DNA from: a virus
Lineage: Duplodnaviria; Heunggongvirae; Uroviricota; Caudoviricetes; Crassvirales
Direction: 5' to 3' (one strand)
Virus record (IMG/VR): IMGVR_UViG_3300023112_000001
DNA: 64,000 nt
The translations under genes were made by a program, and so were the position numbers. The notes beneath the pieces were generated by a model. The model worked only from the letters and a program-made list of their open reading frames with translations, was not told the DNA's origin and did not search any database. Below are positions 1-48,729 of the stretch, one piece after another (position 1 is the stretch's first letter; every line of letters begins with the position of its first letter).

Positions 1-1
1 G

Positions 2-1759
2 GTCGGATTAGATCCAGCGACTGTCACATGGTTTTTAAAACAACCAGTTATTCAGGATATAACTGATAAATTTTTTGCTTCTGGTGAAGATTACGTAGAA
101 GAGTCTAATATAATTGACAAGTATAAAGAAGAGTTCGGAATAACCTCTGATCCAGAAAATGCTCCTAACTTAAATACAAAAGAGTTATTAAAAAATCTTA
201 ATAAATCTACTACAGATAAATCTCAAAAAGAGGTATTAGAGGCTTTTTTAGTATATAAAGATATGGCTAAAGATTGGACAGCTCTAGTGTTAGCTTCTCG
301 TGCTGATACCAAAGGATTTGGACCAACGCTAGCTGATTCGGAAAGTATTGTACATGCTATCAGCAAGGTTAAGGAAGACGATTTTAGCATAAGTGGGGCT
401 AAAGACTTATTTGATATTAATTCAGATAAATATAGGTTAGTTGCAGCATTTACTGAATATGGAATTAATAAACCATTAGAAATTGTAAATAAAATGTTTC
501 CTTATGCTGATCAAACTGGATTATATATGCTTTCTAAAGATTTATTATCTAATTTTATTAAAAATAGAGAATTATCTGTTAAAGAGAGAAATGTTATAAA
601 TGATCAAATAACTGCATATCTATTAAGTAAGTTTAATTTATTTAACCCAAACGATAGATCATACTATTTAAATAAGTTTCCTAAAGAATTTTTGGAATTC
701 TCAGAAAAAAATAGTACATTCGCTGATAATTATTTAGTTCGTAGACTTTTATACCAAAGCTCTAAGTCAGATAAAAATACTCCTATTGAAAGAATAGTAT
801 TTAATAATACTGGATCTCTTAATAATGAGCAAAAAAATGATATTCAGAAAGCTTGGTTAGACTTATATGAAAGTCCTGAATCTAGAGATATGGCTGAAAA
901 ACTATTTAAATATACATACTTTACTACTGGAATGTCTTTTGGAGCTAACGGTTTTTCTCATTTAATGCCTGTTGATCTTTTAACTGATAACGGCATAAAA
1001 GATAACAATTCTGTTTCTTTAGCAGATTTTATGTGGGAACTACAAGATAATAATATTTCTAGTGGCGTAAATGCAACTGAATTCATAGATCAATTTTATA
1101 GGAATAACTATAAAAGTAAAGCATTTGTTCCTAGAGTTAATGAAGAATCTACAAATGTAGACGAAACCCATAAAAACTCTAAAGGTGAAGTTATTGGATT
1201 TACTGTAACCCCAAAAGTTAAAGACAGCTCATTTATTGTTAAATCAAATAACCAAGAAATTGTTTATTCTAAATTTATTTCTTATGAAAATAAAGATAAA
1301 TCCATTAGCTTATATGAGAATAGAAGCGTTGGACCTGTAGCTACGTATGTGTTAACTAATAAATTAGGGTTTCCTAATCATGTATTTGAATATCTTCAAG
1401 GATCTGCAACGTTGACAAGCTCTTTAGATATTAATAATGTTCAGAAATATACCGTATCTGATGTATTAGGGAGCAAAGGTCCAGTTAAGAAAGTATCTCC
1501 AGCGACTAATTTTACAGATGGTAAAAAAGAGGCTACCCTTGAGGGAGATGACGCTGGTAAGTTTGATAAAGTTTCAACAAAATTAAATCCTACTAAGGAA
1601 TATATTTTAGATATAACTTATAGAGGTAAGGAATACTCAATAACACAATTACCTAACAATAAGATAGTTGACAGCAATAATCAATCCTTATCTTATAATA
1701 GCCCAAAGGCAAAATTATTTAGAGATGCTTTAGAGTTAATCAATAAAAAAACATGTTAA
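2..1759 (+). CDS. large hypothetical protein, 5'-truncated by the window edge. Frame 2 is open from nt 2, so the ORF-track start at 263 is an internal Met. Possibly virion- or tail-associated.
   Basis: No in-frame stop between nt 2 and 263; coding-like composition throughout; no recognisable catalytic motif; lies 3 nt upstream of the 1097-aa gene. Confidence 0.5.
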   Translation, partial: VGLDPATVTWFLKQPVIQDITDKFFASGEDYVEESNIIDKYKEEFGITSDPENAPNLNTKELLKNLNKSTTDKSQKEVLEAFLVYKDMAKDWTALVLASRADTKGFGPTLADSESIVHAISKVKEDDFSISGAKDLFDINSDKYRLVAAFTEYGINKPLEIVNKMFPYADQTGLYMLSKDLLSNFIKNRELSVKERNVINDQITAYLLSKFNLFNPNDRSYYLNKFPKEFLEFSEKNSTFADNYLVRRLLYQSSKSDKNTPIERIVFNNTGSLNNEQKNDIQKAWLDLYESPESRDMAEKLFKYTYFTTGMSFGANGFSHLMPVDLLTDNGIKDNNSVSLADFMWELQDNNISSGVNATEFIDQFYRNNYKSKAFVPRVNEESTNVDETHKNSKGEVIGFTVTPKVKDSSFIVKSNNQEIVYSKFISYENKDKSISLYENRSVGPVATYVLTNKLGFPNHVFEYLQGSATLTSSLDINNVQKYTVSDVLGSKGPVKKVSPATNFTDGKKEATLEGDDAGKFDKVSTKLNPTKEYILDITYRGKEYSITQLPNNKIVDSNNQSLSYNSPKAKLFRDALELINKKTC

Positions 1760-1762
1760 AAT

Positions 1763-4700
1763 ATGGCAAGAAGTTGCACTATAAATGATGCTCGAACAAA
1801 AAGAGCTAAAGAATATTTTGGAGAAAAAGATTTTAGAGTTATTTCTGAAAAAGGCATGGGTGGTTTTAATTTTGAGATCACCTCTCCTTATGGCAATAAA
1901 ATTGTTAATAGCCAATTATTTCAAGATATATTAAATGATGATAGATTATCTCATTTAAATTTAGAAGAGCTTGCTGAAAAAGCTTTTGATATATATTTAG
2001 ATTCATTTTCAGATGAATTTGTATCAAAACATGGCGAATGGACTAAGACTGGCAGAGGCTTTAAAGGCTCTAGATATTCTAATACTGGAGAGCCTAATAT
2101 TAGAATTGTATTTCCTAAAAAAACTAAAAAATCAACAGAACAGGAGTCTGAAAAGGCTATAGATTTTCTAAAAAGAACTGTTTCTGAATTAGAAGAGAAG
2201 ATAACTGTTTTAGATAAAAAAGCTACAACGGCAGAAGCTGAAGAAGAGGTTGCTAGATTGACTGAGCTTAAGGCAAGGCTTGAAAAATCATTAAAAGATG
2301 ATGAAATGGTTCTTGGTGTTAGAGAATATTTAGATCAATATTTATTAAATAAAGAGATTCCTAAAATATTAACAGTTTTAGAAGATATAAAATCTGGAGA
2401 AAGAGATATTACCGATAGGACTATTGTATGGATGGAAGATTTTATTATGCTACATAAGCCTAATCTGCAAAGGTTACACGTAGCTTTAAATAGTTCACCT
2501 GAATTACAAGCTGAATATGAGAAAGATTTAAAAACCATTATAGAGGAAGTAGAGAAGCAATTAGGTATAATTGAAAGTTATGCTACTTCTTATGCTGAAG
2601 ATTCTGTAATAGATGTTACTTACAATGTTTATAATAAAGGCGGTAAGGAAAAGTTTAGTAGAGATACCATTAAGGGATGGTACGAAGATACTGTTAAAGG
2701 TATTAGCGGTTTATCGAGATGGTTTGGTATTAAAACCTCAGCAGGAGATCCTGTAATAAGGATGGTTGCTGAAATGATCTATAAGATCAAATATAATATA
2801 GATAGGGTAGTTAATCCAGCTACAGATAAGCTTATAGATCTTCAAATGGATTTACATAAGGCTGGATTTAAAGATATGTCTATATTTAATGAAAAATATA
2901 ATGGCAAGCGTACTGGATTTTTAATAAATAAATATAAATGGGGTGAGCTGTATACTGCTAAAGAAAATCTTCAAGCGGAATTAGTTAAAACATTTAAAGT
3001 GGATAACTATGAGCAGGTTCTTTCTATGAAAGAAACATTAAAATCTTCTGATCCTAAATTAATAAAATTTAAGAAATTAAATGAAGCCTATAGTAAAAAG
3101 TATAAGGTTCATGGTAAAGACAGAGCTCCTATAAATAAAGAGTTTGAAAAGCTTATGGAAAATAAGGCTTTTGCAAATTATTATAACGCTTTATACGATG
3201 TTCATACTAAATCTAAAGCTAGATTGACTAGCAAATTCCAAACTGGAATACATAAATATATGCTTCCTCAAATAAGAAATAACGAGTTAGAAGTGTTGCA
3301 AAATCAAGGCGTAAAAGAAGCTGCTAAAGTTACATATAGAAAGGGCAAGGAGGTATTTAAAACTACTGAAGATGATATAGAATTTGGCGATATTAATAGG
3401 GATAAGAATGGTAAGATTATGAAGGTGATCCCTATTCATTATACTAGCAAATTGCCCAATCAAGAAGAGTTGTCAAATGATGTAACCTCAATGTATCATA
3501 ATTTTTATAAGATGGCTGAAAATTTTCGTCAAATGAGTGAAAATGTTGACACCCTTGAACTAATATATAGAGCTATGGGTAAGCGTAAGATAGAGACTAA
3601 GCAATCTGCAGCTTCTGTTGAAGACTTACTTAAATCAGAAGTTTATGGTCAAGCTCTTAAAGAAATAACCGTAGATGTTTTAGGCACAAAAGTTAATGTC
3701 TCAAAGGTATTACAGACAGCATTAGTAAAATATCCTGCTTCTGTCAATATGTTTATGAATATGCCAGTTACTATTTCTGGTGCAGCTAAAGCTGAGGTTG
3801 ATAAATACATGGAAGTTATGGCTGGAAAGTTTATGACTCCGTCGTCGGTAATTACAGCTAAAAAAGAGTATTTAAAGAATATACATAGTTCTATTTCTGA
3901 ACTAGGTAGTCGCAAAAAGACGAATAAGTTCGATTTAATGCTTAAATACCTTCAAGTGGATGATGTACTCCATAAAGCTTATAGAAACCTTAATATCGAC
4001 TCTAAAGCCCTTAGACAGGCTCATTCTGATTTAGCATATGTATCTATGATGCCTCATGCATACGCTCTAGCTGTTAAAAATGCTTTAGGTATAATGTATA
4101 ATTATAGATTAGTTAATGGTGAATTTATTACAGAATACGACTTAAAGCAAAAATATAAAGAAAAATCTGGCAAGATTAGTAATAAGGAATTCAAAGAGAC
4201 TGCAGAATATAAAGAATTTAAAGATGAGTGGTCTAAAAGCAAAGATAAATCTTTATATGATGCTTATACTATTACTGATAACCAATTCACAATTAAACCT
4301 GAATACAAGAAGTATATAAGTAAGGATTTTGAATATAAAGTCTCTAAAATAACTAGAAACCTAACAGATCAAATGGAGGGAAAACGTAACTCTTTAGATA
4401 AAGCTGGTATTGATATGCATCCTCTAGGTAGAGCTATAATGCTCCATAGGGGTTGGATTCCAAAATTAGCTTCTCAAAGATTTAAGACTGGCGGATTTGA
4501 TCTTTCCCTAGAAGAAGAAAATGAAGGCTTCTATAGAACTGTTGGTAGGTTAACCGCCAATATGTTTAGCATGACTGATGGTAATATTAGATTTAAACTT
4601 GCTAAATGGAATGAGCTGGAGGAGTTTGAGAAGCGAAATACTGTTAGATTTATGTCTGACTTAGTAGCTTTAATGGTTATAAGCTTGATGGCTACTGTTT

Positions 4701-5056
4701 TAAATAAAATTGCAGATGATGACGAAGAAGATAAGTGGGCTATAGAATATGCTGCTTATCAAATTAATAGATTATTGCTTGAGCAAAAAGCTATGAGTCC
4801 AATACCATTTTTAGGAGGTGGTATGAATGAATTATTTAATACTCTTAAATCGCCAGCAGCAGGTATAAACCAATGGGAGAAAATTACTAATATAAGTAGC
4901 TTATTTATGGATATGGGTGATGAGATTAATTCTGGACCTTATAAAGGGATGTCTAAATGGCAAAGGTTTTTAATACAGCAGGGTCATCTTAAGAATTTAT
5001 ATGAAATACAGTTCCCTAAATCAAAGAACTCATTCATGAAGTCGCAAATCTTATAG
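1763..5056 (+). CDS. large hypothetical protein (1097 aa), charged and coiled-coil rich; possible virion structural or ejected protein.
   Basis: Uninterrupted 3.3-kb ORF tightly coupled to the upstream gene and followed by a hairpin plus T-run terminator; no motif-level identification. Confidence 0.5.
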   Translation: MARSCTINDARTKRAKEYFGEKDFRVISEKGMGGFNFEITSPYGNKIVNSQLFQDILNDDRLSHLNLEELAEKAFDIYLDSFSDEFVSKHGEWTKTGRGFKGSRYSNTGEPNIRIVFPKKTKKSTEQESEKAIDFLKRTVSELEEKITVLDKKATTAEAEEEVARLTELKARLEKSLKDDEMVLGVREYLDQYLLNKEIPKILTVLEDIKSGERDITDRTIVWMEDFIMLHKPNLQRLHVALNSSPELQAEYEKDLKTIIEEVEKQLGIIESYATSYAEDSVIDVTYNVYNKGGKEKFSRDTIKGWYEDTVKGISGLSRWFGIKTSAGDPVIRMVAEMIYKIKYNIDRVVNPATDKLIDLQMDLHKAGFKDMSIFNEKYNGKRTGFLINKYKWGELYTAKENLQAELVKTFKVDNYEQVLSMKETLKSSDPKLIKFKKLNEAYSKKYKVHGKDRAPINKEFEKLMENKAFANYYNALYDVHTKSKARLTSKFQTGIHKYMLPQIRNNELEVLQNQGVKEAAKVTYRKGKEVFKTTEDDIEFGDINRDKNGKIMKVIPIHYTSKLPNQEELSNDVTSMYHNFYKMAENFRQMSENVDTLELIYRAMGKRKIETKQSAASVEDLLKSEVYGQALKEITVDVLGTKVNVSKVLQTALVKYPASVNMFMNMPVTISGAAKAEVDKYMEVMAGKFMTPSSVITAKKEYLKNIHSSISELGSRKKTNKFDLMLKYLQVDDVLHKAYRNLNIDSKALRQAHSDLAYVSMMPHAYALAVKNALGIMYNYRLVNGEFITEYDLKQKYKEKSGKISNKEFKETAEYKEFKDEWSKSKDKSLYDAYTITDNQFTIKPEYKKYISKDFEYKVSKITRNLTDQMEGKRNSLDKAGIDMHPLGRAIMLHRGWIPKLASQRFKTGGFDLSLEEENEGFYRTVGRLTANMFSMTDGNIRFKLAKWNELEEFEKRNTVRFMSDLVALMVISLMATVLNKIADDDEEDKWAIEYAAYQINRLLLEQKAMSPIPFLGGGMNELFNTLKSPAAGINQWEKITNISSLFMDMGDEINSGPYKGMSKWQRFLIQQGHLKNLYEIQFPKSKNSFMKSQIL

Positions 5057-5101
5057 AAAGTATGTATAGGAGTCGGTTTAAAAAGAATTAATTTAATTAA
5101 T

Positions 5102-5132
5102 AGGAGTAGCACAAAACTACTCCTTATTTTTT
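5102..5132 (+). terminator. rho-independent terminator (likely bidirectional) between convergent genes.
   Basis: Hairpin AGGAGTAG-cacaaaa-CTACTCCT followed by TATTTTTT; sits between a + gene ending at 5056 and a - gene ending at 5117. Confidence 0.6.
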
Positions 5133-5347
5133 AATAATACCTTAATTGATTTTTGTAATTGTTTTATACAGGATTTATGATTTTCAATTTCTTCTTCTTT
5201 AAATAAAAGATCAGAATACATTTCTGATTCACTACTATTTAATTTAATTAATTCGCTTTGATGTTTTTCTATAATTTTAGATAACATTTTTACGCTATAA
5301 TCCATAATATATTTATTGTATAAATTTAAAAAAGGAGTAGTTGTCAA
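5117..5347 (-). CDS. small hypothetical protein (76 aa), coiled-coil-like.
   Basis: ORF at the distal end of the minus-strand block; no motifs. Confidence 0.35.
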   Translation of the reverse strand: MTTTPFLNLYNKYIMDYSVKMLSKIIEKHQSELIKLNSSESEMYSDLLFKEEEIENHKSCIKQLQKSIKVLLKNKE

Positions 5348-5361
5348 CCACCCCTTTTTTT

Positions 5362-5985
5362 TTAAATAAAGTTTTTATAATTATCTTTAATTTTATCCAA
5401 TCTATGTAGCTCATATTTTTCAATTATGAATTTAATTTTAAAAGCATACATGGGATCTGTTGCATAACCTCCATTTTTAACTAAATGAGCCGCTTCTTTG
5501 TAATTTGAAGCAGCCCCTATATTATATCTTTTGTTATTATGGAGTAAATTAGATACTGCTCTAATGTTATCAGCTTTAGAATTATATTTTTGAAAACTAT
5601 CTGTTATAGTAATAAATTTACTACCATCCCATTCTTTAGTCTTCCTAACATGTCCTTTGCCTTTAATACCGAAATAATTGTTTCCTATAGAGTGTTTACC
5701 CCAACCAGTTTCTATTATAGCCATAGCTATAATTACTGACGGGTAACTGTCGCAATTTTCAATAATTAAACTTAAATTTTCTTCGGTTAGAAAGTTCTTA
5801 GCACTAGAAGAGTATTTATATTTAACCCCTACGTCTGCCGTATACGAACTTAATTCTTTTTGAAAATTAATTATATTAACCGCTTTCATTACATCGTAAT
5901 TACTTATATTAATTACCGCTGACGGTACAGTTATAATTGATATAAAGCATAAACTGATAATAAAAAATAGTTTTTTCATATTCAT
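5362..5985 (-). CDS. secreted mannosyl-glycoprotein endo-beta-N-acetylglucosaminidase-family protein (glucosaminidase domain); a peptidoglycan hydrolase, possibly lysin or virion-associated.
   Basis: N-terminal signal/TM peptide MNMKKLFFIISLCFISIITVPSA; glucosaminidase signature IAMAIIETGWGKHSIGNNYFGIKG (compare the AQAxLESGWGKS...NNLFGIK motif of FlgJ/Lyz2 enzymes). Confidence 0.7.
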   Translation of the reverse strand: MNMKKLFFIISLCFISIITVPSAVINISNYDVMKAVNIINFQKELSSYTADVGVKYKYSSSAKNFLTEENLSLIIENCDSYPSVIIAMAIIETGWGKHSIGNNYFGIKGKGHVRKTKEWDGSKFITITDSFQKYNSKADNIRAVSNLLHNNKRYNIGAASNYKEAAHLVKNGGYATDPMYAFKIKFIIEKYELHRLDKIKDNYKNFI

Positions 5986-6062
5986 TTTTTTTAAAAAAGG
6001 TCACGAAGATAAGTAAAATAATTGAATTAACCAACTATTTTACCTATTTTCGTATATATAAT

Positions 6063-6674
6063 TTAATTTTGTGTAATTAAATTACTTAGAGGTAATAATT
6101 CAATTTGCTTGCAAAAATACTTCCATTCGTCTAATTTATGATTTTTACGTTGATTGTAAATTGTTTTTAATTGAAGATAGTTTGTAGATATTCCCATCCA
6201 TTTTAAGTATCCAGATGGAAGATTAGCTATTATATTTTTAAAAAATTCACTTTTTTGAATAGAATCTTTTGTGTTATTATATCCATAAATATATTTATTT
6301 AAGGTATCTATAAATGCTAAACTTACATTTGGTATAAAATCATTCTTAGTCAAATTTCTACTAGTAATCTTATGCATCTTGCTCTGACTACTGACAATAT
6401 CTATCCAATTGTATCTCTGCAATTGAGGGCTAAAATATTCTGGATATCGTAAATCAAATTGAACTATAACTCCTTTTAAGAAATTATCATGACCTGTACC
6501 AGACTTTACTTTTGCTAACTTTTCTGCTCTTTGAATATTATTATCTAAATTAATAGTCTCATGTAATCCATTTGCGATATCATTTATATCAATAGGATCA
6601 CCTGTTGTCATAGGATAACCGCTACGAAGTATTGATTCTTCTAAACCATATACTTTTACATTTTTAATTTCCAT
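6063..6674 (-). CDS. hypothetical protein (203 aa).
   Basis: ORF overlaps the downstream gene by 11 nt (operon-like); no recognisable motif. Tpt1-type RNA 2'-phosphotransferase was considered, but its motifs are not seen. Confidence 0.5.
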   Translation of the reverse strand: MEIKNVKVYGLEESILRSGYPMTTGDPIDINDIANGLHETINLDNNIQRAEKLAKVKSGTGHDNFLKGVIVQFDLRYPEYFSPQLQRYNWIDIVSSQSKMHKITSRNLTKNDFIPNVSLAFIDTLNKYIYGYNNTKDSIQKSEFFKNIIANLPSGYLKWMGISTNYLQLKTIYNQRKNHKLDEWKYFCKQIELLPLSNLITQN

Positions 6675-7068
6675 TAACTTTACTTTTTAACACTATTTTT
6701 TTGTATTGATCTTTGCAAATCTTTACTAATTCAGGATCGTTAAATGAATATTGATCTGGTATATCTAATATATAAGATCTTTTTTTAGCATTTAACCTCT
6801 CAATATCATGCTTTACTTCATTATAATTTTCCCTATTTACAAATACTATTTCATCAGCCCATGATATTAACGCCTCGCTAATTGGTATTAAAGCATACGC
6901 TTCAACAGTACCGCAATTCCTAACATTATATCCATATTCTTTTATAAGCATGTTCTGCAAAGTTGCTGATCGTAACAACCCTGCCGAACATACTGTTAAA
7001 ACTTTTTTAACCTTTCCTTGAAACGAATTATTTATATTAAATAGCTGATTCCTGCTTCCCTTTATCAT
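6664..7068 (-). CDS. low-molecular-weight protein-tyrosine-phosphatase / arsenate-reductase-like phosphatase.
   Basis: P-loop VLTVCSAGLLRSAT matches the C-X5-R(S/T) LMW-PTP signature near the N-terminus; DP dipeptide (NDPELV) where the general-acid Asp is expected; 134 aa. Confidence 0.6.
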   Translation of the reverse strand: MIKGSRNQLFNINNSFQGKVKKVLTVCSAGLLRSATLQNMLIKEYGYNVRNCGTVEAYALIPISEALISWADEIVFVNRENYNEVKHDIERLNAKKRSYILDIPDQYSFNDPELVKICKDQYKKIVLKSKVNGN

Positions 7069-7762
7069 ATTCTAAATATATTCCATTATTAACATTAACG
7101 TATTTTAAATTTTTAACGCAAGCATTTACAAATTCAGTTTTTAATCCTGATTGATTTGGTTTAAATATACCACAATTATATACTCCACCTTCATCATGTA
7201 AATGCCCAAATATATGATATTTTGGATTGATTTCAGTCACTTTATTTAATAAAGCTTTGTCTCCAACTTTTTCATAATAATTAGAATGAGCAATTGTGTA
7301 ATCTAATATTCCTTTTGGTGGCCCATGAGTGACTATTATATCTGTATTTAATGGTATATCTTCCCAATAATTACTTATTTTGTGTCTTGGAACATTATAT
7401 GCCCATCCATGTCCAAAAGTTGGCGTATATGGGCTCCCAAATATATTAACTCCTTCTAACGTAATGCTTTCATGAATTAATACAGTAATATTTGGGTAAT
7501 CTTGCTTAAAATTATGAAATTTAGCCTCTACGCTTGTATCGTGATTTCCAGGAACGTATACTTTATGTTTATATGGTAGTTTATTAAACCATTCTAAAAA
7601 ACTTCTCATTTGACCATCATTAATAGATAAGTCTCTATGCCCTCCAGCGTCACCAGAATGTATAACCATGTCTACTTCTTCTGGATTTGGCGGTATTAAC
7701 CTATGATGATCACAATGAGTATCGCTTATAGCCCATATCTTTATTTTATCTTTTTCTTCCAT
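7037..7762 (-). CDS. calcineurin-like metallophosphoesterase (candidate RNA 2',3'-cyclic phosphodiesterase / 3'-phosphatase).
   Basis: Metallophosphoesterase motifs ISDTHCDHH (D-x-H), HSGDAGGH (GD-x-x), VPGNHDT (GNH[DE]), GHLH. Confidence 0.75.
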   Translation of the reverse strand: MEEKDKIKIWAISDTHCDHHRLIPPNPEEVDMVIHSGDAGGHRDLSINDGQMRSFLEWFNKLPYKHKVYVPGNHDTSVEAKFHNFKQDYPNITVLIHESITLEGVNIFGSPYTPTFGHGWAYNVPRHKISNYWEDIPLNTDIIVTHGPPKGILDYTIAHSNYYEKVGDKALLNKVTEINPKYHIFGHLHDEGGVYNCGIFKPNQSGLKTEFVNACVKNLKYVNVNNGIYLEYDKGKQESAI

Positions 7763-8402
7763 CTACTATATCTATTTTGGTATTTTCCATAACCTTTCTA
7801 ACTTCATTAAAGCTAATTGGCTTATATTCACCAAATAATTTAAATATATTATCCACTCCAACATCTAATTGCTTTCCTTTAGGTTTATAATTACCATGAT
7901 TATGACCGTGTAGATTCCAACTGCCTCTATGTTGCTCACTCCAAACAGCTATAGGGAAATGCATTATAGTTATCATATGCCCATCTATAGATATTTCCAA
8001 GTATCTTTGATAAGAACTAAATAATTCCTGAGCATTAATCCCAAATTCTTTATTATTATCAATATGTTGATCATGATTACCGCCAATTAAATGTATGGTT
8101 TTGCAAATTATTTGCTTTCTAAATTTCCATATATTTCTCCAACCGCCAAATGACCAATCTCCTAAATGAAATAATATATCATCCTCTTTAACATATTTAT
8201 TAATATTATCAACAATATGTTGTGACATTTCTTTTGTAGTTTTAAAGTCTCTACAATTGTCAGGACTAGCGTCATTCCAAGAAGATTCTCCTAAAGTAAT
8301 ATTTTTATGCCCATAGTGGGAGTCTGATGTAAACCATATATTTCGCTCTTTTGATTTAAGTTTCAACATATTTACTCTCCATTTTATTAAGCCATTCAAC
8401 AA
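7746..8402 (-). CDS. calcineurin-like metallophosphoesterase (second paralogue).
   Basis: Motifs FTSDSHYGH, HLGDWSFGG, IGGNHDQH, HGHNH; overlaps the neighbouring genes. Confidence 0.75.
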   Translation of the reverse strand: MLNGLIKWRVNMLKLKSKERNIWFTSDSHYGHKNITLGESSWNDASPDNCRDFKTTKEMSQHIVDNINKYVKEDDILFHLGDWSFGGWRNIWKFRKQIICKTIHLIGGNHDQHIDNNKEFGINAQELFSSYQRYLEISIDGHMITIMHFPIAVWSEQHRGSWNLHGHNHGNYKPKGKQLDVGVDNIFKLFGEYKPISFNEVRKVMENTKIDIVDGRKR

Positions 8403-8586
8403 GATTTTGAACTATTTTTTGAGAATAATTTGTATCCCCAGTAATAATCCAATCTGGTATAGTATATATCATCATCCAAATTATAGATAATATAAATACA
8501 CAGGTAAATATTATAATACCTATAACTATAAGTAATCTTTTAATCATAATATTTATTATAAAAATATTTAATAACTTTAAATCCAA
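8356..8586 (-). CDS. small membrane protein (76 aa).
   Basis: Strongly hydrophobic segment LLIVIGIIIFTCVFILSIIWMMIY; the ORF overlaps both neighbours and could be spurious. Confidence 0.35.
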   Translation of the reverse strand: MDLKLLNIFIINIMIKRLLIVIGIIIFTCVFILSIIWMMIYTIPDWIITGDTNYSQKIVQNLVEWLNKMESKYVET

Positions 8587-8986
8587 CTTTTTTTTCTCCT
8601 AAGAACCCTCTCTTTATATCTCTATACACACATTTCCAAAAAGGAGTCTCAAATCTTTTAAACTCTAACTCTATATTTAGATTCTTATTAGGTGTTTTTA
8701 TATTTCCAAGTAGATCATACCAAGAATTAATAGTTGATTTATTTAAATTTGTAGCATCTACAACAACATTATATTCAGATTGCAATGCAAGTTCTACGGA
8801 ATGCATTTCAAGCTTTGTTATAAGTTTCTCTCTATTTGGAACCCAATACTTCCCACACATCTCCCTTATATCATCTCTGCATACCCTAATCCATGTTGTT
8901 GGATTTTCTTTTGCCAGTTTTAAAGCAAAGGTGCTCTTACCTGAAGCAGGAGCACCTTGTAATATCAATAATTTAATTGTTTTCAT
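8540..8986 (-). CDS. P-loop polynucleotide 5'-kinase-like protein (the kinase domain of a T4 Pnk / bacterial Pnkp-type RNA-repair enzyme).
   Basis: Walker A ILQGAPASGKSTFA at the N-terminus followed by RVCRDDIRE (compare T4 Pnk K15, D35, R38); 148 aa; immediately downstream of the RNA ligase gene. Confidence 0.6.
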   Translation of the reverse strand: MKTIKLLILQGAPASGKSTFALKLAKENPTTWIRVCRDDIREMCGKYWVPNREKLITKLEMHSVELALQSEYNVVVDATNLNKSTINSWYDLLGNIKTPNKNLNIELEFKRFETPFWKCVYRDIKRGFLGEKKVGFKVIKYFYNKYYD

Positions 8987-10309
8987 TTAATTTAAATCTT
9001 CTTGATCAATAACTCCTTTATCTTTATCTCCAGATTCTTTTAATCTAAAAGCATCGCTTTTATACTTAAGACATTCCCAATTTCCTTGCTCGTTAATAAA
9101 CCAAACAACTACACCTTCTTTAAGTGTGTCGTTAGCTAATTCAGACTGCCCTTGAGCATAATTAACAATTTTTTCTTCAAGAATCTCCATAGATCTTTTA
9201 GTTCCAGAAAAATACACTTTCTCAAATAAATGAGGTTTTTCTAATCCTAACTCTTCAGCTCTATTATAAACATATTCTCTAGAATAATCTACAACTTTAC
9301 CATCTTCATTATTCATTGTAATGCGATACAATAAATTACGATAAGGTTGGTTATCATATTCTAATTGTAACTCTAGTCCACCTTCTCCTTTATCTTTTCT
9401 TATATGAGGCTCACATCCATATGGAAATCCTTTTTGAATTTGCTTACCAGTTTTTTCATATCCAAATAACTCCATATAAAGCTGCTCTCCTTTAAATAAT
9501 TTCTGAGCTTTAAGGTTTTCTAAAACTTCTTCTCTCATAGTATTATCATGATATGGAGATTTTTGAGTATCTGGAGTATGAACTACTCTACGAGTACCAT
9601 TAAGATATTCCCAATTAGATACATGAGCACCTTTATTTAAACGATTTTTCTTTTTAGAAATAATATTCCAAATCAAAAGTTTAAATATATTAATGGGCTT
9701 CTCTTTAATCACATTAACATGCCCAGTTCTATGAGACGTTCCATGAACTTTTTCTTCAATATAACATATTGTTTGAGCTGGAATCCTATGTTTGTTACGC
9801 ATAAACTGAGATGTATCCCAATGTTCTACAAACATAGGGGCTTTAAAAGCTTTTCTTCCAGAATTTTTCTTACCATTATTATGATTATCACTATGATGTA
9901 TTAATGGTATATATTTTTCGCAAAATTTACCCCCATTAATAGAATCGAACTCTTCACCTATATCATAATCTGATTTTATTACACCTAAGTAAGATAAGTA
10001 TTCAAATTGGAATAAAAATCCATCAGATGTTTCTCCGCGCATTTTAATGCATTTTACCCTACCATCATCTCCAAAATATCCTGATTTGGTTTTATCAGCA
10101 TTTAATTCTGAATGACGATATAAGTTATTTGCATGTAAGAAATTATCAGACATTTTCATATTAGAATCTATATAGATCATAATATCTCCTACCTTAACAT
10201 CTTTTCCCGTAATTACTTGAGTTCCAAATAGTTTTACTAATTGGATTCTATCCATTCCAGGAATCTCTTCTGTTTTGTTTATTTGTACTACTACTGCTTG
10301 ATTATTCAT
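8987..10309 (-). CDS. ATP-dependent RNA ligase (Rnl2/Rnl5-like nucleotidyltransferase); start reassigned to the internal Met of MNNQAVVV.
   Basis: Ligase motif I EEKVHGTS (compare T4 Rnl2 KIHGTN), motif III LYMELFG, motif IV EGVVVWF, motif V LKYKSDAF; an N-terminal roughly 170-aa extra domain as in the Deinococcus/Naegleria-type (DraRnl/NgrRnl) RNA ligases. The ORF-track N-terminus (MIKILFY...) overlaps the next gene out of frame. Confidence 0.7.
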   Translation of the reverse strand: MNNQAVVVQINKTEEIPGMDRIQLVKLFGTQVITGKDVKVGDIMIYIDSNMKMSDNFLHANNLYRHSELNADKTKSGYFGDDGRVKCIKMRGETSDGFLFQFEYLSYLGVIKSDYDIGEEFDSINGGKFCEKYIPLIHHSDNHNNGKKNSGRKAFKAPMFVEHWDTSQFMRNKHRIPAQTICYIEEKVHGTSHRTGHVNVIKEKPINIFKLLIWNIISKKKNRLNKGAHVSNWEYLNGTRRVVHTPDTQKSPYHDNTMREEVLENLKAQKLFKGEQLYMELFGYEKTGKQIQKGFPYGCEPHIRKDKGEGGLELQLEYDNQPYRNLLYRITMNNEDGKVVDYSREYVYNRAEELGLEKPHLFEKVYFSGTKRSMEILEEKIVNYAQGQSELANDTLKEGVVVWFINEQGNWECLKYKSDAFRLKESGDKDKGVIDQEDLN

Positions 10310-10571
10310 TATTAATTTCTTTAAATAATTCTTCTTTAAGTGATAAAATAGAATCTTTATCAATTCTTTTAACTACTGTAAATCCCCCTGCCCTCATTCC
10401 GCCAAACTCTACTGCAACATCTTTAAGTTTAGCTTTTTCAGATGCTAATTTCAAAGTAGCTTTTATAGCGTCTTTTTGAGCTCGACTTATTATATTGTTT
10501 AAATCAAATTGACTAATTGAATAAGACGGTATACCTATTGTATATTCTTTAGCTTTCTTCATAACTACCAA
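10302..10571 (-). CDS. hypothetical protein (89 aa).
   Basis: ORF in the operon; no motifs. Confidence 0.4.
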   Translation of the reverse strand: MVVMKKAKEYTIGIPSYSISQFDLNNIISRAQKDAIKATLKLASEKAKLKDVAVEFGGMRAGGFTVVKRIDKDSILSLKEELFKEINNE

Positions 10572-10954
10572 TCTATGTTAATTGCATACTCTCCAGCTTC
10601 AATTAATCCTCTTTTATGTAAATCATTTGCTACTGTATTTATATCAGGATAAAAATTTCTTTCCCAAAATAAATTAATAACCCACCTCTCTGTTTCTTTA
10701 CCTACTTGTTTTTTAGGACTACGTTTTAGCCATTTATTAAATTTAACCCCCATAATCTCGCCATTAATTATTTCTGGTATATCTTCCTCCATTTCTTCAT
10801 CTTCTGTATAATCTGATGGAATGGTTAAATTAAACACACCTCTAGGCTTACAACCTTCTTGTTGTTGAAAAGAATATGGTTTATTATATGTTTTTCTTAT
10901 AAGATCATCCCAATCTTGTACTTCTATAAATTTTTTATTACTTATTTTAATCAT
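10565..10954 (-). CDS. hypothetical acidic protein (129 aa).
   Basis: ORF with tight overlaps; no motifs. Confidence 0.45.
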   Translation of the reverse strand: MIKISNKKFIEVQDWDDLIRKTYNKPYSFQQQEGCKPRGVFNLTIPSDYTEDEEMEEDIPEIINGEIMGVKFNKWLKRSPKKQVGKETERWVINLFWERNFYPDINTVANDLHKRGLIEAGEYAINIDW

Positions 10955-11747
10955 TATTATTTAATTTATATTTCCAAATAAATCCTTGAGAAGTTTTTGT
11001 TTTATTAATACAATTTGCATTTATAGCTTTGTAAGATAAATTTAATTTTTCTGAAGCTATTTTAGCATTTTCCCATTCTTTAATAACTTTATTATTTAAA
11101 TCAAACTGTAGTACTGGTTTAGAATTATGATGATCTTTTCCAGTTTTGCCAAACATAGGATTTTTAATTCCTTTTTTTGCATTTGATAAATTAACACTTG
11201 CTTCTTTTGAAGTTTTTCTACCTTTAGAAGATTTAGATATCCCTTCTCTTCTTTGCAATTCCATTTTTTCTGAAATATTTCTATTTTTAGCGGAAACACT
11301 TTGTTTTAATCTTGATTCTTTAGAATGAATCTTACCTTTCCATACATTATTTTCTTTAAGTCTGTTTTTAGTTGCAATAGACATTTTTAGCTTAGAGCCC
11401 TCGGAATGTTTTTTATTTTTCATTGGACTCTTTTTACCGCGCATATTTTTAGAAAATAATTTTTTAGCATGATCATAAGATTTAGAAGATGGGATAAATC
11501 TTCCAGTTTTACTTCCATTACACATCATCCAAAAAGCATAAATTAATTTTTCATTTTCGGGATATATTTTTATTAATATATAGTGAACTAAATAATGTTC
11601 TTTAGCGGTAAGTAAAACTATATTATTTTTTTTATTATCTCCACCTAAGCATTTAGGTATAATATGATGTTTTTCATAATAATTATTTGTTTTGATTCTA
11701 AATTTTCCTATCGTAATAATTTTATTATAAATTTTTATATAATCCAT
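10947..11747 (-). CDS. free-standing HNH homing endonuclease with C-terminal NUMOD-like DNA-binding repeats.
   Basis: HNH core EKHHIIPKCLGGDNKKNNIVLLTAKEHYLVH; C-terminal repeated GK(K/T)xS/HS..SK.K.S basic modules resembling NUMOD3. Confidence 0.75.
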   Translation of the reverse strand: MDYIKIYNKIITIGKFRIKTNNYYEKHHIIPKCLGGDNKKNNIVLLTAKEHYLVHYILIKIYPENEKLIYAFWMMCNGSKTGRFIPSSKSYDHAKKLFSKNMRGKKSPMKNKKHSEGSKLKMSIATKNRLKENNVWKGKIHSKESRLKQSVSAKNRNISEKMELQRREGISKSSKGRKTSKEASVNLSNAKKGIKNPMFGKTGKDHHNSKPVLQFDLNNKVIKEWENAKIASEKLNLSYKAINANCINKTKTSQGFIWKYKLNNND

Positions 11748-11799
11748 ATATTTTACTTTTCAATAAAGATAAGTAAAATTATTGATATACACAAATTTT

Positions 11800-12393
11800 T
11801 TATGGAACAAATAAGCAGGACGGGTTGTCAGGATGAATATCTACCTCAATGGGAATTTTCTTTTTAAACTCATCCCTATTAAATGGTTTTGTAATTAAAT
11901 GGTGCCCATTTTTAGTTTCAATTATATCTATACCTTTTTCTCCTTTTGGAGACAATGGTGTTAGTATCATTAAAATACCTTTTAGATTAACATCTTCTAA
12001 TTTTTCATCAATATCAATAATCCATTTTTTAGAATCTCCAGATTCAGCACTAAATCTATTACAACAAGAATTAAAAGCATCTTTTGCTGGAATGTAATTA
12101 TTATTTATAATGCAATCAGATAAACTTTTCATTGTTTGCAAAGCTATTGTTTTAAAGCTTCTTCTATTAAGATTAAAATATGCTCTAGCTTTATAATAAT
12201 TACACATGTCTATTATCTCTTTTTTGTGAGAAATAAGCTGCTCTTTAGACTTTATATAGAATACATGTACAACTTTAGAAGATTTTTCTAAACCAGGATT
12301 TTCTTTCTTACGTCTTATTATCTGTAAAAAATAAAAATCATCTTCACTTCTAAAATCCATTAAATCTAGAATTTTATTGAAATTATCTACCAT
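11800..12393 (-). CDS. hypothetical protein (197 aa).
   Basis: ORF only. Confidence 0.45.
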   Translation of the reverse strand: MVDNFNKILDLMDFRSEDDFYFLQIIRRKKENPGLEKSSKVVHVFYIKSKEQLISHKKEIIDMCNYYKARAYFNLNRRSFKTIALQTMKSLSDCIINNNYIPAKDAFNSCCNRFSAESGDSKKWIIDIDEKLEDVNLKGILMILTPLSPKGEKGIDIIETKNGHHLITKPFNRDEFKKKIPIEVDIHPDNPSCLFVP

Positions 12394-12626
12394 TATTTCA
12401 TTATTATTTTTTTTCTTTTTGGTTTTTTTGCTGACTTACTTGCAGTTCCTTCTTGCTGCTCCAATAACCATCTATATTCTTGTGGTGTAACAAAATCCAT
12501 ATCTCGATCTTTGTTTTCATCACAATTCATCCATGCATGAATTTGTAGCACATCAGTAAATTCTTTATGATGGTTTAGATCATTTACATCTACAGCTATC
12601 ATTTTATAATTTTTAATTACTACCAT
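12393..12626 (-). CDS. hypothetical protein (77 aa).
   Basis: ORF only; basic C-terminus. Confidence 0.4.
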   Translation of the reverse strand: MVVIKNYKMIAVDVNDLNHHKEFTDVLQIHAWMNCDENKDRDMDFVTPQEYRWLLEQQEGTASKSAKKPKRKKIIMK

Positions 12627-12627
12627 T

Positions 12628-12867
12628 TTAAGTTAGTTTTTTAGTTATTAATATATTATCTTCTATAGCCTCTATTTCTCCATCTACAGCTTCTTTGTAT
12701 AACTTTTGTTTTAAACAGCTTCTTCTTAATTTATTATAAGTATTTCTGGCTACTTTAGATTTACGTTTATTTCCTAATTTATTATCACAGCATTGGCACT
12801 TAATTCCACCTATTCCTGTATATTTAAAACCAGCTTTCTTATATAAATCTTTCATATTATTTTGCAA
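12628..12867 (-). CDS. hypothetical small Cys-containing, Lys/Arg-rich protein (79 aa), possibly nucleic-acid binding.
   Basis: C-x-C-C motif (GGIKCQCCDNK) followed by a very basic segment. Confidence 0.4.
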   Translation of the reverse strand: MQNNMKDLYKKAGFKYTGIGGIKCQCCDNKLGNKRKSKVARNTYNKLRRSCLKQKLYKEAVDGEIEAIEDNILITKKLT

Positions 12868-13621
12868 TTATATTAAACCCATTATTTATTAAATCCTCTA
12901 CTATAGAATTATTTATATTTATTTTATATGGAGCTTTTATCTCTTTCCCATTAAAAACAAAATATAAATTATGACTATTCCCAATCATATTTTTAAATAT
13001 ATAAGGTTTAAGTTGCACCATATTATAGAATACATCAGATTCAATATATATATCAGAAATAAATTTAGTTACATTAAAATTTTCCGCTTCAGTTATCATA
13101 GATACAGATGCCGAACCTCTGTCACTATTATAATTAACTTTAACTAAATATACTCTATTTAAAAATAACTTTGGGATTAATTCTTTATATTGTTTGCCAA
13201 ATAAATAAAATTCATAAGACCCAGTTTCATCCTCAAAAGATAATTTAGCGTATTTATTTCCACTAACTTTAGCGGTCATATGTTTTATTTGTGTTAAATC
13301 TCCAATAAATTTTAAGTTTTTATTATTTTCATTTAATAAAAAAATATCTTTTAAATTAGTATTACAAATTTTGCTTTTGATTAATTGATATTTAGATAAT
13401 TTATTATATGAAATACATAAACCTAAAACCTCTCTTTCTTTCGATAGTAATTCGTTTACATCTATTTTTGATTTTAATTTTAATTCTAAGTTAGAATCTT
13501 CTTCAGCTCCAAATAAAGATAATTGATTTCTATCATTTTTTTTATATTTGCTATAAAGACCATCGGCATTGTCTAATAATGTTTGCCTATAAATTAAAAT
13601 ATCTTCAGCTTCTTTATACAT
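12857..13621 (-). CDS. hypothetical protein (254 aa).
   Basis: ORF only. Confidence 0.45.
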   Translation of the reverse strand: MYKEAEDILIYRQTLLDNADGLYSKYKKNDRNQLSLFGAEEDSNLELKLKSKIDVNELLSKEREVLGLCISYNKLSKYQLIKSKICNTNLKDIFLLNENNKNLKFIGDLTQIKHMTAKVSGNKYAKLSFEDETGSYEFYLFGKQYKELIPKLFLNRVYLVKVNYNSDRGSASVSMITEAENFNVTKFISDIYIESDVFYNMVQLKPYIFKNMIGNSHNLYFVFNGKEIKAPYKININNSIVEDLINNGFNIIAK

Positions 13622-13717
13622 AACATATAATTTTAAAAAAATATAGAGAGGTTTTTACACCCCTCTATAAATCACTAACACTAACTATTTACTAACCACT
13701 TATTATGAAAAATATTA

Positions 13718-15460
13718 TTATATTCCGCAGGTTCCGCCTTTGCCACTTATCGAGCAAACGTCATGAAATTCTTCTTTAAACTCTTTCCCTTCATGTTCTA
13801 AGGCTTCTTTATACGAGACTCTTGTTAATGGTTGACCACCTCTACTTCCATCAGGATAACAGGTAAACCCTCTTAACCTATGAGCGTACTTTAATAATGT
13901 TTTAGCAAATTTATTTACCTTTGTTTCATTATTAAGTTCCGTTCCCCAAGGTGGTAAATTAATTGTACTCGATATACTCATATCAACATAATCTTGAATA
14001 TCAGCTTGAAATTTAATTCTTTTCTCAAAATTATTTGCTAAATCTAAAGCAGTCTCTATTTTATCAGGATCTATATTATACTTCTCTACAAGTATTTTCG
14101 TAGTTCCATCAATAACATATTGATAATGCCAAGAATCACCATTTTTAAGATATCTGCGCTTATAAGCTGCTGCAAATAAAGGCTCTCCAGAAGTTGAAGT
14201 TCCTGCTAAAATTCCAATTGTACCAGTTGGCGCCAATGCTCTAAACGCTGCTGGTATATTAATGCCTAGCTTATTAGCTAACTCTATAGCTCCTGTTTCG
14301 CTATTAGTCTTATACACTTCTAGCCAATTCTGTAACTCATTCGTTACGGTATAATCATAACCTCTAGTAAGAAGCCATTCATGAATACCCATTAAGCCTA
14401 ATCCAAGCCTTCTGTTTTGCTCTCTAACCTCTTCTATTTTCTTATATGGTAATTGAGCCTTTAATGTACCGCATAGTAAAAATCTACTAGCTAAATAGCA
14501 TATTCTTTGGAATTCTTCAATTGATTCAATTCTTGACATATTCACAGAACCTAAATTACATACATCAGAATCATCTTCAGAAGTAACCTCAGTACACGCG
14601 TTTCTTAATGTCTCATTAACCTTTTCAAAGAAATTAAAGCTAAATCCAGGTTCTCCTGATTTCATAGCTTGACGACAATTTTCAATAAATGTCATTGGAA
14701 TATATTTAAACTCCAATTCTTTACCAGATTGAAATCTTCTTTTTATATCATCTATCGGTAAATCATAAACTGTTTCCAGAAATTTATTATCATAATTCAC
14801 ACTGATATTAGTCATATCTAAAGGAGCTGGATAATTGAAATCCTTTTCTTTTAATTGACCTATAGTAAGATTTTTTCCATTATCATCATAGGCACCACTG
14901 ATAGGCATATTATACCAATCTTTAGAGTGCATATATTCTCCAATATCTCCATGTCTCCAATTTAATGATGCGTATATAGCACTTCTTCTAGAACCTCCCT
15001 GCATGACATTACGACCAATTTCATTGATCATATACATTTTAGGTATTGGTCCAGAAGCTAATCCGCCAGTTTTTTTAATTATAGATCCCTTAGATCTGTA
15101 TATAGAGTAATCATTTCCTATTCCTCCGCCAGTCATAAGACAAGATTCCGCCTTCCAACTTAAATTAGCCCAATCTTCTCTAGAATCTTCCTCAGATTTT
15201 AATAGAAAGCAATTATTATAAAATTTATTTTTCCTATTAGCGTAATAAAGATATCTACCACCTGCAATAAATTTCATCTCCGAATGATACCTTATTAACT
15301 CATCAACCTCCTCTTTAGGTAAAATATCTCCACATACATTTTGCATTAATTTTGTAGATAATTTCTCCCATGTTTCGCAACCCTTATGGGCATATTTATT
15401 TTCAAAAATATCTTTTGCAAAATCTGTTCTAAAAACATCAACCTTGTTGTTTTTATTCAT
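13718..15460 (-). CDS. ribonucleotide reductase catalytic subunit (probably class II, B12-dependent type).
   Basis: RNR active-site-like motifs RNACTEV (compare SNLCTEI) and CNLGSVNMS (compare class II CNLGS(I/L)NL); C-terminal Cys pair CSISGKGGTCGI; 580 aa. Confidence 0.6.
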   Translation of the reverse strand: MNKNNKVDVFRTDFAKDIFENKYAHKGCETWEKLSTKLMQNVCGDILPKEEVDELIRYHSEMKFIAGGRYLYYANRKNKFYNNCFLLKSEEDSREDWANLSWKAESCLMTGGGIGNDYSIYRSKGSIIKKTGGLASGPIPKMYMINEIGRNVMQGGSRRSAIYASLNWRHGDIGEYMHSKDWYNMPISGAYDDNGKNLTIGQLKEKDFNYPAPLDMTNISVNYDNKFLETVYDLPIDDIKRRFQSGKELEFKYIPMTFIENCRQAMKSGEPGFSFNFFEKVNETLRNACTEVTSEDDSDVCNLGSVNMSRIESIEEFQRICYLASRFLLCGTLKAQLPYKKIEEVREQNRRLGLGLMGIHEWLLTRGYDYTVTNELQNWLEVYKTNSETGAIELANKLGINIPAAFRALAPTGTIGILAGTSTSGEPLFAAAYKRRYLKNGDSWHYQYVIDGTTKILVEKYNIDPDKIETALDLANNFEKRIKFQADIQDYVDMSISSTINLPPWGTELNNETKVNKFAKTLLKYAHRLRGFTCYPDGSRGGQPLTRVSYKEALEHEGKEFKEEFHDVCSISGKGGTCGI

Positions 15461-21426: not shown

Positions 21427-21430
21427 TTTT

Positions 21431-24237: not shown

Positions 24238-24238
24238 T

Positions 24239-25448: not shown

Positions 25449-25452
25449 AATT

Positions 25453-40153: not shown

Positions 40154-40198
40154 AATTGTTTAATTTAAGTTTATTTAATTTATGAATATTAATTTGAG

Positions 40199-48571: not shown

Positions 48572-48576
48572 CATAT

Positions 48577-48650: not shown

Positions 48651-48652
48651 CT

Positions 48653-48723: not shown

Positions 48724-48729
48724 CATTAT

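Follow-up and report, generated by a model that had tools for sequence, protein, structure and literature searches.

A 64,000-nucleotide stretch of DNA from the virus record IMGVR_UViG_3300023112_000001 (the window, 64 kb out of the 101-kb genome of an uncultured, crAss-like phage) carries on its minus strand a compact set of genes whose core probably constitutes a split heal-and-seal RNA-repair module made of three polypeptides: an ATP-dependent RNA ligase, a stand-alone polynucleotide 5'-kinase and a metallophosphoesterase (MPE-A). The case for such a module in an aquatic crAss-like phage is carried by the fold and family assignments of the proteins, their intact catalytic residues, the operon-like packing of the genes and a strong, recurrent gene linkage among phages. 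A second metallophosphoesterase (MPE-B) and a small cysteine phosphatase with the fold of low-molecular-weight protein tyrosine phosphatases (LMW-PTPs) are encoded directly downstream:

8987..10309, minus strand: ATP-dependent RNA ligase of Rnl5-like architecture, 440 aa
8540..8986, minus strand: predicted stand-alone polynucleotide 5'-kinase, 148 aa, phosphatase domain absent
7746..8369, minus strand: MPE-A, calcineurin-type binuclear metallophosphoesterase, 207 aa
7037..7762, minus strand: MPE-B, MPPED2-like metallophosphoesterase, 241 aa
6664..7068, minus strand: cysteine phosphatase with LMW-PTP fold (PTP-like gene), 134 aa

The run reads, on the minus strand, ligase, kinase, a 63-aa open reading frame (ORF), MPE-A, MPE-B, PTP-like gene and then a last gene at 6063-6674. 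Ligase and kinase abut (0 nt) and the remaining junctions overlap by 8, 14, 17, 32 and 11 nt, the 32-nt overlap joining MPE-B to the PTP-like gene and the 11-nt overlap joining the latter to 6063-6674. An earlier reading of this DNA made from the letters alone (the sequence-only reading) had described five consecutive, overlapping genes; the overlapping minus-strand run is present, but with the 63-aa ORF added it holds six ORFs, one of its junctions is without overlap and it continues into 6063-6674. All the motif strings quoted in that reading were located in minus-strand ORFs. The studied stretch is identical within a 101,130-bp public metagenome contig, and the gene arrangement recurs at 95–100% identity in four independent public assemblies; it is therefore no assembly artefact.

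The ligase, the kinase and the two metallophosphoesterases

The ligase most likely starts at 10309, because all of its homologues begin at the equivalent of M19, covering 96% of the ORF, and public gene calls give the same 440-aa protein; position 10363, taken as the end of the gene in the sequence-only reading, is only a TTG, the first to follow a stop. With the ATG at 10309 as residue 1, the motifs are KVHGTS (187-192), YMELFG (278-283), EGVVVW (398-403) and LKYKS (414-418). Residues K187, H189, G190, E280, E398, K415 and K417, which fall in motifs I, III, IV and V, are invariant across 24 homologues, and the predicted lysine nucleophile is K187 of motif I. The protein ends 22 residues after motif V and its structural model finishes in one short helix, leaving no C-terminal appendage.

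At the other end of the protein, an N-terminal OB domain was recognized (PF21189, PHA02142; E 6e-7, residues 6-100), and the RNA_ligase family PF09414 was matched by 10 of the 24 family members. The DraRnl model TIGR02306 aligned from residue 5 to motif I, i.e., to the N-terminal half only, with an E-value of 1e-5 and a score of 24.6 bits that lies far below the cut-off of 151.15 for that family. An AlphaFold model built on the 24 homologues (pLDDT 84, with low-confidence segments at 140-153, 221-226 and 311-317) matched NgrRnl over its full length in Foldseek (E ~1e-14, TM(target) 0.70), followed by REL1 (8e-7) and T4 Rnl2 (2e-5); the best DNA ligase (9e-3) was 12 orders of magnitude weaker, and the ligase of CthPnkp (Rnl4) reached an E-value of 0.02 only. 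The protein is an RNA ligase and not a DNA ligase.

It shares with the Rnl5 enzymes DraRnl and NgrRnl the N-terminal OB-like domain, the nucleotidyltransferase domain and the lack of a C-terminal appendage, but it is ~100 residues longer, with insertions, is ~14% identical to NgrRnl and has a histidine in motif I (KxHG) in place of Asp172 of NgrRnl (KxDG). Its motif I, KxHGT, is of the kind found in REL1 and T4 Rnl2. Because of the KxHG motif, the low identity to NgrRnl and the TIGR02306 score below cut-off, we consider it best called Rnl5-like in architecture, as a distinct subfamily, rather than plain Rnl5.

Mobile elements occur in and around this gene. A free-standing HNH/NUMOD3 homing endonuclease (10947-11747, minus strand) is encoded 0.6 kb upstream of the ligase gene, and in the related locus L123 a homologue of it scoring 89% adjoins the module; a 773-aa ligase homologue (P0120) has intein and LAGLIDADG Pfam matches, and locus L112 (7962-10322) has a ligase ORF of 787 aa. 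The ligase gene is thus targeted by selfish elements.

The kinase carries the motifs GAPASGKST (11-19), RDDIR (37-41) and RDIKRG (122-127) and matches AAA_33 (E 6e-13) as well as the 'polynucleotide kinase' family phrog_505 (E 2e-29), the latter through its kinase half only (3-140 of 295 profile positions). Among solved structures it is closest to Pnkp1 of the Capnocytophaga Pnkp1-Rnl-Hen1 repair complex (4xrp, E 1e-11), and T4 Pnk (1ltq, E 3e-5) aligns across the entire kinase domain. K17/S18, D38, R41 and R126 correspond to T4 K15/S16, D35, R38 and R126, so that all catalytic residues of T4 Pnk are kept. Pfam and NCBIfam scans found no HAD phosphatase domain. Models of deoxynucleoside monophosphate (dNMP) kinase type scored marginally and none was comparably significant; by sequence, the protein is of stand-alone polynucleotide-kinase type and not a dNMP kinase.

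MPE-A starts at 8369, giving 207 aa rather than the 218-aa ORF that opens with TTG. It matches Metallophos (E 1.5e-5) and, at E 2e-46, the family phrog_547, of which 1,299 phage records have a member, and is distantly related to Aquifex aq_1665 (PDB 1xm7, E 2e-5); its metal-ligand motifs DSH (16-18), GD (70-71), GNHD (97-100), H137 and GHNH (155-158) are invariant in the family. MPE-B matches Metallophos (E 4e-11) and phrog_1649, with the motifs DTH (14-16), GD (37-38), GNHD (72-75), THGPP (145-149) and GHLH (186-189). Both proteins score above the Pfam Metallophos cut-off, and each has a complete set of binuclear-metal motifs. Judged from its alignment to MPPED2 (PDB 3rl4, E 6e-28, residues 11-198), MPE-B is a clear homologue of this protein and of the class III metallophosphodiesterases, the group to which the MPPED2 family belongs and whose MPPED members hydrolyse cAMP and cGMP (PMC10547211). 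The sequence-only reading had named an RNA ligase, a polynucleotide-kinase-type kinase, two metallophosphoesterases and a C-X5-R phosphatase of LMW-PTP fold (described below), and these assignments all hold; the two outcomes that it said would overturn it, a dNMP kinase and a DNA ligase, were both looked for, and neither was borne out.

Gene linkage, the cysteine phosphatase and alternative readings

In all seven loci with a ligase at least 53% identical to that of the window (53–62%; among them L092, L114, L121, L122, L123 and L124), the kinase is followed directly by an MPE-A orthologue, and the kinases of L092, L114 and L121-L124 are likewise stand-alone proteins of 141–147 aa. Three loci among the closest ligase relatives also have RlaP upstream, an RNA-ligase-associated nucleotidyltransferase of Pol-beta type (PMC12776372; PMC7824862). 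Remoter ligase homologues adjoin a T4-type fused Pnkp (Stenotrophomonas phage Jojan60, Gordonia phage Rabbitrun and Bacillus phage PBC2); the lineage of the window has therefore in effect exchanged the HAD domain for a metallophosphoesterase with a gene of its own.

This linkage extends well beyond the immediate relatives. We compared 80 IMG/VR loci with the closest relatives of MPE-A (37–48% identical; ±4 kb, 0.61 Mb in total) with a control set of 80 loci that have the PTP-like gene at their centre (reaching up to ±10 kb, 1.14 Mb in total). Around MPE-A, a kinase was found in 46 loci, an RNA ligase in 44, either in 59 and both in 31, and collapsing the census at 90% identity (65 clusters) left a kinase in 36, an RNA ligase in 38 and either in 48; the control loci had no kinase and four RNA ligases (either in 4). 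Divergent Rnl5-like ligases beside PTP-like genes were missed by single-sequence tblastn and were found with hidden Markov models (HMMs). In 27 of the 46 kinase-containing loci, no more than 150 nt separate MPE-A from a kinase encoded on the same strand, and the kinase-like ORFs near MPE-A are almost all of 119–172 aa, i.e., stand-alone. Ligases in the MPE-A-centred loci are Rnl5-like in 30 and Rnl1-like in 19, and in the E. coli phage vB_Eco_J-01 an MPE-A homologue, an Rnl1 (PF09511) and a 134-aa AAA_33 protein are encoded by three adjacent genes. MPE-A, stand-alone kinase and RNA ligase thus make up a module that recurs among phages and in which one ligase family can stand in for another, the pattern to be expected if the end healing done by MPE-A and the kinase serves any ligase encoded beside them.

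MPE-B accompanies this module occasionally, as an accessory. Among the 80 loci centred on MPE-A, 9 have an MPE-B homologue within 4 kb, vs. 1 of the 80 PTP-centred loci, the MPE-A/MPE-B pair recurs in an unrelated 166-kb contig (L011), and in Flavobacterium elemo phages MPE-B homologues stand alone, away from any ligase or kinase. The single cassette proposed in the sequence-only reading therefore narrows to a conserved core of ligase, kinase and MPE-A, with MPE-B sometimes added and a PTP-like gene in none of the 80 MPE-A-centred loci.

Several observations weigh against an RNA-repair module. Around one quarter of the MPE-A-centred loci have neither kinase nor ligase within 4 kb; two of the three annotated cultured-phage contexts inspected (Enterococcus EFLK1 and Vibrio D441) show no ligase nearby; and distant ligase homologues (39–46% identical; L115, L116 and most IMG/VR matches) have no kinase or MPE-A in their vicinity. 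Neither MPE-A nor MPE-B had a detectable PDB match to the phosphatase domain of Pnkp/Pnkp1 (4xrp, CthPnkp) or to lambda phosphatase, and the closest characterised relatives of MPE-B are cyclic-nucleotide phosphodiesterases (PMC10547211). Metallophosphoesterases are proven RNA end-healing enzymes in the case of CthPnkp and lambda phosphatase (PMC2190708), and class III-type metallophosphodiesterases also cleave 2',3'-cyclic phosphates (PMC2190708, PMC4222275). We regard MPE-A as the best candidate for the 3'-end-healing enzyme, acting as 2',3'-cyclic phosphodiesterase and/or 3'-phosphatase.

The division of labour that we infer for the module would begin at 2',3'-cyclic-phosphate or 3'-phosphate ends, where MPE-A, helped or complemented by MPE-B where that is present, would open and remove the cyclic phosphate to leave a 3'-OH. 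The stand-alone Pnk-type kinase would then move a phosphate from a nucleoside triphosphate to the 5'-OH, and the ligase would adenylylate itself on K187, pass the AMP to the 5'-phosphate and seal the break, with a probable preference, given its Rnl5 architecture, for breaks whose ends a duplex or stem keeps together. In T4, the ligase for anticodon-loop repair is Rnl1. Because characterised Rnl5 enzymes are nick sealers and not loop sealers of the Rnl1 type, the analogy with anticodon-loop repair, and with it a PrrC- or RloC-like host anticodon nuclease, is conjecture here. Characterised Rnl5 ligases seal duplex nicks that need an RNA 3'-OH strand, are feeble on single-strand RNA and seal RNA-OH/pDNA nicks as well as RNA/RNA nicks (PMC4408790). 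By analogy with the T4 and Pnkp paradigms and with comparative surveys (PMC7824862), the biological trigger may be a host RNA-cleaving defence.

A larger RNA-repair island was seen at positions 1-12399 of L011 (the 166,629-bp contig ERR15087771_1341, from an unrelated big phage), which holds MPE-A, MPE-B, a homologue of a further gene of the window (orf197), an Rnl5-like ligase, a 124-aa protein, a PTP-like gene, a Thg1-like 3'-5' polymerase, a DNMK-like kinase and a T4-type Pnkp (AAA_33 + HAD_PNKP), with an ATP-dependent DNA ligase near the island. The window's orf197 (11800-12393, minus strand, 197 aa, phrog_14949) has no Pfam or PDB match; its invariant residues D127-x-D129 and K161-x-G163-x-H165 resemble, by eye only, a nucleotidyltransferase or primase pattern. 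In L011 a homologue immediately precedes the Rnl5-like ligase, in L123 another comes right after kinase and MPE-A, and none was seen in the three relatives carrying RlaP. As a further module member orf197 was set aside and left as a lead, given two other contexts (L128 and L129) that have no RNA-repair genes and the missing Pfam and PDB matches; on L128 (138-560), a phage-like contig with an orf197 homologue, there are in addition genes for an SmpB-like protein (PF01668) and an IS605-type TnpB.

The PTP-like protein has the motif CSAGLLRS (C-X5-R-S) at residues 27-34. Searched alone it had no match in Pfam, where LMWPc (PF01451) was reached by one of 37 family members (E 0.012), but a profile of the 37 sequences found Wzb (7dhd, E 3e-5), YwlE (1.4e-4) and Ssu72 (2e-3) in the PDB. 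The structural model (pLDDT 96) matched Wzb and YwlE in Foldseek (E 3e-5, TM ~0.6), its top 34 matches were all LMW-PTPs or YwlE, and no significant viral structure was found in BFVD. C27, R33, S34 and D105 are invariant, D105 aligning with the general acid of the DPY loop, and the family has invariant residues of its own (N14, Q17, N48, R50 and W70). The fold, the N-terminal C-X5-R-S loop and the conserved Asp are those of LMW-PTPs (Wzb, YwlE) and of Ssu72, and the protein is shorter; it is an LMW-PTP-fold protein of a distinct family for which Pfam has no model. The family comprises 781 clusters at 50% identity and is almost only viral, with 14 matches in 185,579 cellular genomes, mostly on contigs of metagenome-assembled genomes; in one chromosomal context, from a Verrucomicrobiae, the neighbours are unrelated (PBP1 and a PQQ-repeat protein). 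In the window and in loci L012-L091 it is far better conserved than its neighbours: identity is 70–80% across more than 100 clusters, vs. at most 64% for the ligase outside its immediate lineage. So high a conservation is unusual for an accessory protein of 134 aa and hints at an important substrate under constraint.

In a set of 78 distinct viral loci, the genes most often found within 4 kb of the PTP-like gene on its own strand are those for ribonucleotide reductase (RNR) large subunit (27 loci), 5'-3' exonuclease/FEN (26), HNH (16), ThyX (14), dGTP diphosphohydrolase (12), dCMP deaminase (9) and RNR small subunit (9), and in annotated Alcaligenes and Zobellviridae phages the gene likewise stands among nucleotide-metabolism genes. 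It is more likely that the family serves the nucleotide-metabolism and replication gene set that it usually accompanies.

Two further readings may be set out as a pair, for which we see jointly a small chance: that the substrate of the PTP-like enzyme is a nucleic-acid or nucleotide phosphate and not a phosphoprotein, perhaps making it a new RNA end phosphatase where its gene abuts Rnl5-like ligases, and that MPE-B couples the destruction of cyclic-nucleotide immune signals with the repair of the RNA damage which those signals trigger, in a two-pronged counter-defence island. It is unlikely that the five genes work together as a single system in which the PTP-like enzyme would be a third end-healing phosphatase, removing, for example, a 2'- or 3'-phosphate left by the phosphodiesterases. 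The 32-nt overlap with MPE-B places the gene in the same transcription unit, the catalytic Cys, Arg and Asp are invariant in the family, the PTP-like gene of L011 lies one gene from the Rnl5-like ligase in an island with MPE-A, MPE-B, Thg1 and T4-type Pnkp, and in L008, L009, L012 and L025 it is followed immediately by an Rnl5-like ligase. Set against these are its absence from all 80 MPE-A-centred loci and from the six further loci whose ligases are most closely related, the scarcity of ligases (4/80) and kinases (0/80) in the PTP-centred loci, its commonest neighbours (RNR, FEN, ThyX, dGTP diphosphohydrolase and dCMP deaminase) and its place at the end of the array in crAss-like relatives with or without a ligase (e.g., L010), which argues for synteny rather than function. 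A role for the PTP-like gene in RNA repair is unsupported, and we treat it as a co-transcribed neighbour.

The core module might also act on DNA or on RNA-DNA junctions in phage replication or repair, for example at ribonucleotide-ended nicks or at 3'-phosphate/5'-OH DNA ends. T4 Pnkp acts on DNA ends as well, the module is placed inside a replication and nucleotide-metabolism array, and no DNA ligase was found among the window ORFs scanned, a scan of some ORFs in 64 kb of the 101-kb genome that does not establish absence. Rnl5 and Rnl2 enzymes moreover seal nicks between an RNA 3'-OH strand and a DNA 5'-phosphate strand (PMC4408790). The recurrent partners elsewhere are RNA-specific, however, including RlaP, the Thg1-like enzyme and the Rnl1-type ligases that replace Rnl5-like ones beside MPE-A and kinase, and the nearest solved relative of the kinase belongs to an RNA-repair complex; we hold action on DNA to be quite improbable.

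Very improbable, finally, is that one or both metallophosphoesterases, especially MPE-B, degrade immune second messengers (CBASS, Pycsar, type III CRISPR) and adjoin the other genes in a shared counter-defence island: the MPPED2 match and the cleavage of cAMP and cGMP by MPPED enzymes (PMC10547211), the predicted countering of nucleotide signals by calcineurin-like phosphodiesterases in jumbo phages (PMC7824862) and the solitary MPE-B homologues of the elemo phages speak for it, but the tight, directional placement of MPE-A next to the kinase (27/46 within 150 nt on the same strand; 7/7 close relatives) points to a shared substrate pathway, MPE-B is enriched near the module (9/80 vs. 1/80), and the action of class III-type enzymes on 2',3'-cyclic phosphates (PMC2190708, PMC4222275) makes both readings compatible. 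RNA repair by ligase, kinase and MPE-A remains the reading that we prefer.

Remaining genes of the run and genomic context

Two other genes belong to the overlapping run:

8356..8547, minus strand: small hydrophobic, membrane-like ORF, 63 aa
6063..6674, minus strand: phrog_6721 protein, last gene in the overlapping run, 203 aa

The 63-aa ORF has no family match in Pfam and PHROG scans; the gene calls of the identical contigs L001 and L002 include it, and it is absent from L003, L004 and all other relatives. It is lineage-specific, and its functional status and module membership are uncertain. The 203-aa protein matches phrog_6721 (E 1e-51), with no Pfam, NCBIfam or PDB match, and in L114 and L122 a homologue precedes the ligase by ~5 kb. 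By eye it had been suspected to be a divergent ThyX, an identity that we rejected: an HMM built from 14 neighbouring phage ThyX genes gave an E-value of 0.24, and Pfam, NCBIfam and PDB gave nothing. Its link to RNA repair is not supported, and it too is a co-transcribed neighbour.

The module lies within a replication and nucleotide-metabolism array (RNR at 13718-15460, exonuclease, primase and helicase), itself part of a minus-strand gene array from ~5.1 to 46 kb that is bordered by plus-strand structural genes. The only terminator-like minus-strand hairpin in 5000-13800 (13642-13669, an 11-bp stem plus T run) falls just after the RNR gene, and the scan found no terminator-like site on the minus strand between 13642 and 5000; the genes from 13621 to ~5117, repair module and endolysin included, may form one transcription unit. 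Promoter-like sites were not enriched (59 observed vs. 63.7 expected) and crAss-like phages use their own RNA polymerase, which makes the promoter scan uninformative.

The window has a G+C content of ~29%. Terminase, portal and major head protein are encoded at 54–62.5 kb, and the head protein has its best named relatives in Cellulophaga phage phi14:2 (36% identity) and in gut crAss-like phages. A megablast of 6000-10600 against 50,697 phage records gave no match, and the source phage, as far as its sequence tells, is without a close cultured relative; its host is probably an aquatic member of the Bacteroidota.

tRNA genes occur at 48499-48802 on the plus strand and at 40196-40273 on the minus strand: those for tRNA-Asp(GTC), -Pro(TGG), -His(GTG) and -Gln(TTG) form a tight cluster at the strand-switch region, and there is a fifth, tRNA-like gene whose anticodon was not assigned by ARAGORN and which Rfam scores as tRNA at 41.5 bits. 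Phage tRNA genes are compatible with pressure on tRNA, yet are no evidence for such pressure. Two very large plus-strand genes, of 3,711 and 1,097 aa, converge on the minus-strand array (window 1-5056; L001 12013-20405); the larger is complete in the full contig and truncated at the left end of the window, neither protein has a PHROG match, and related crAss-like contigs carry counterparts of 3,000–3,700 aa. A cluster at 19888-26259 (minus strand) encodes an amidoligase (phrog_2443), a COOH-NH2 ligase (phrog_3815) and a protein like ribosomal-protein-S6 glutaminyl-transferase (phrog_2599), interspersed with unannotated proteins of 668 and 282 aa, and looks like a peptide- or metabolite-modification system.

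Comparison with characterised repair systems

Heal-and-seal RNA repair is a classic phage answer to host tRNA-cleaving defences, and to our knowledge only the T4 version (HAD-Pnkp + Rnl1) and the bacterial Pnkp/Hen1 version have been studied; we know of no split MPE-A/kinase/ligase triad that has been characterised experimentally. In the searchable literature, which did not take in the survey of Burroughs and Aravind (2016), we found no description of such triads or of such a module in crAss-like phages. The present module would add a third, modular version, in which a stand-alone kinase and a particular metallophosphoesterase family are combined with an interchangeable Rnl5-like or Rnl1-like ligase, and which is widespread in uncultured phages, here in a crAss-like one. 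It offers a testable function for phrog_547, a very common phage 'phosphoesterase' family, implies RNA-cleaving defences as a significant pressure on aquatic Bacteroidota phages, and sets apart a highly conserved viral cysteine-phosphatase family for independent study.

With bacterial Pnkp (C. thermocellum Pnkp/Hen1 and C. gingivalis Pnkp1-Rnl-Hen1) the module shares a P-loop kinase, a binuclear metallophosphoesterase and an ATP-dependent ligase, the ligase being a separate polypeptide in Pnkp1-Rnl-Hen1 too. Kinase and phosphoesterase are fused in Pnkp and Pnkp1 but are separate genes in the phage, the Pnkp ligase is of Rnl4 type whereas that of the phage is Rnl5-like, and no Hen1-like methyltransferase was found among the ORFs of 6063-13621. 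In effect, the module is a bacterial-Pnkp-like set of enzymes split into separate genes, with an Rnl5-type ligase for Rnl4.

With T4 Pnkp and Rnl1/Rnl2 it has in common a phage-encoded heal-and-seal pathway and the kinase domain with its catalytic residues. The T4 enzyme has a HAD phosphatase domain where the phage has a separate metallophosphoesterase, and the phage ligase differs from Rnl1 and Rnl2 by its N-terminal OB domain and the absence of a C-terminal domain; relative to the fused Pnkp of T4 type, the window is a domain-replacement variant. The sequence-only reading had called the arrangement more elaborate than that of T4; it is rather differently built, with a separate metallophosphoesterase replacing the fused HAD phosphatase and chemistry as in bacterial Pnkp.

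The window's module belongs with J-01 and the many IMG/VR triads, with which it shares the MPE-A family, the small stand-alone kinase and the adjacent RNA ligase, although gene order varies among triads and the ligase of J-01, like that of 19 of the 80 loci, is of Rnl1 type. The kind of system is thus well known, but its composition is not among the characterised versions: three polypeptides, a metallophosphoesterase in place of HAD, an Rnl5-like ligase with a motif I of Rnl2 type, and an optional MPPED2-like paralogue.

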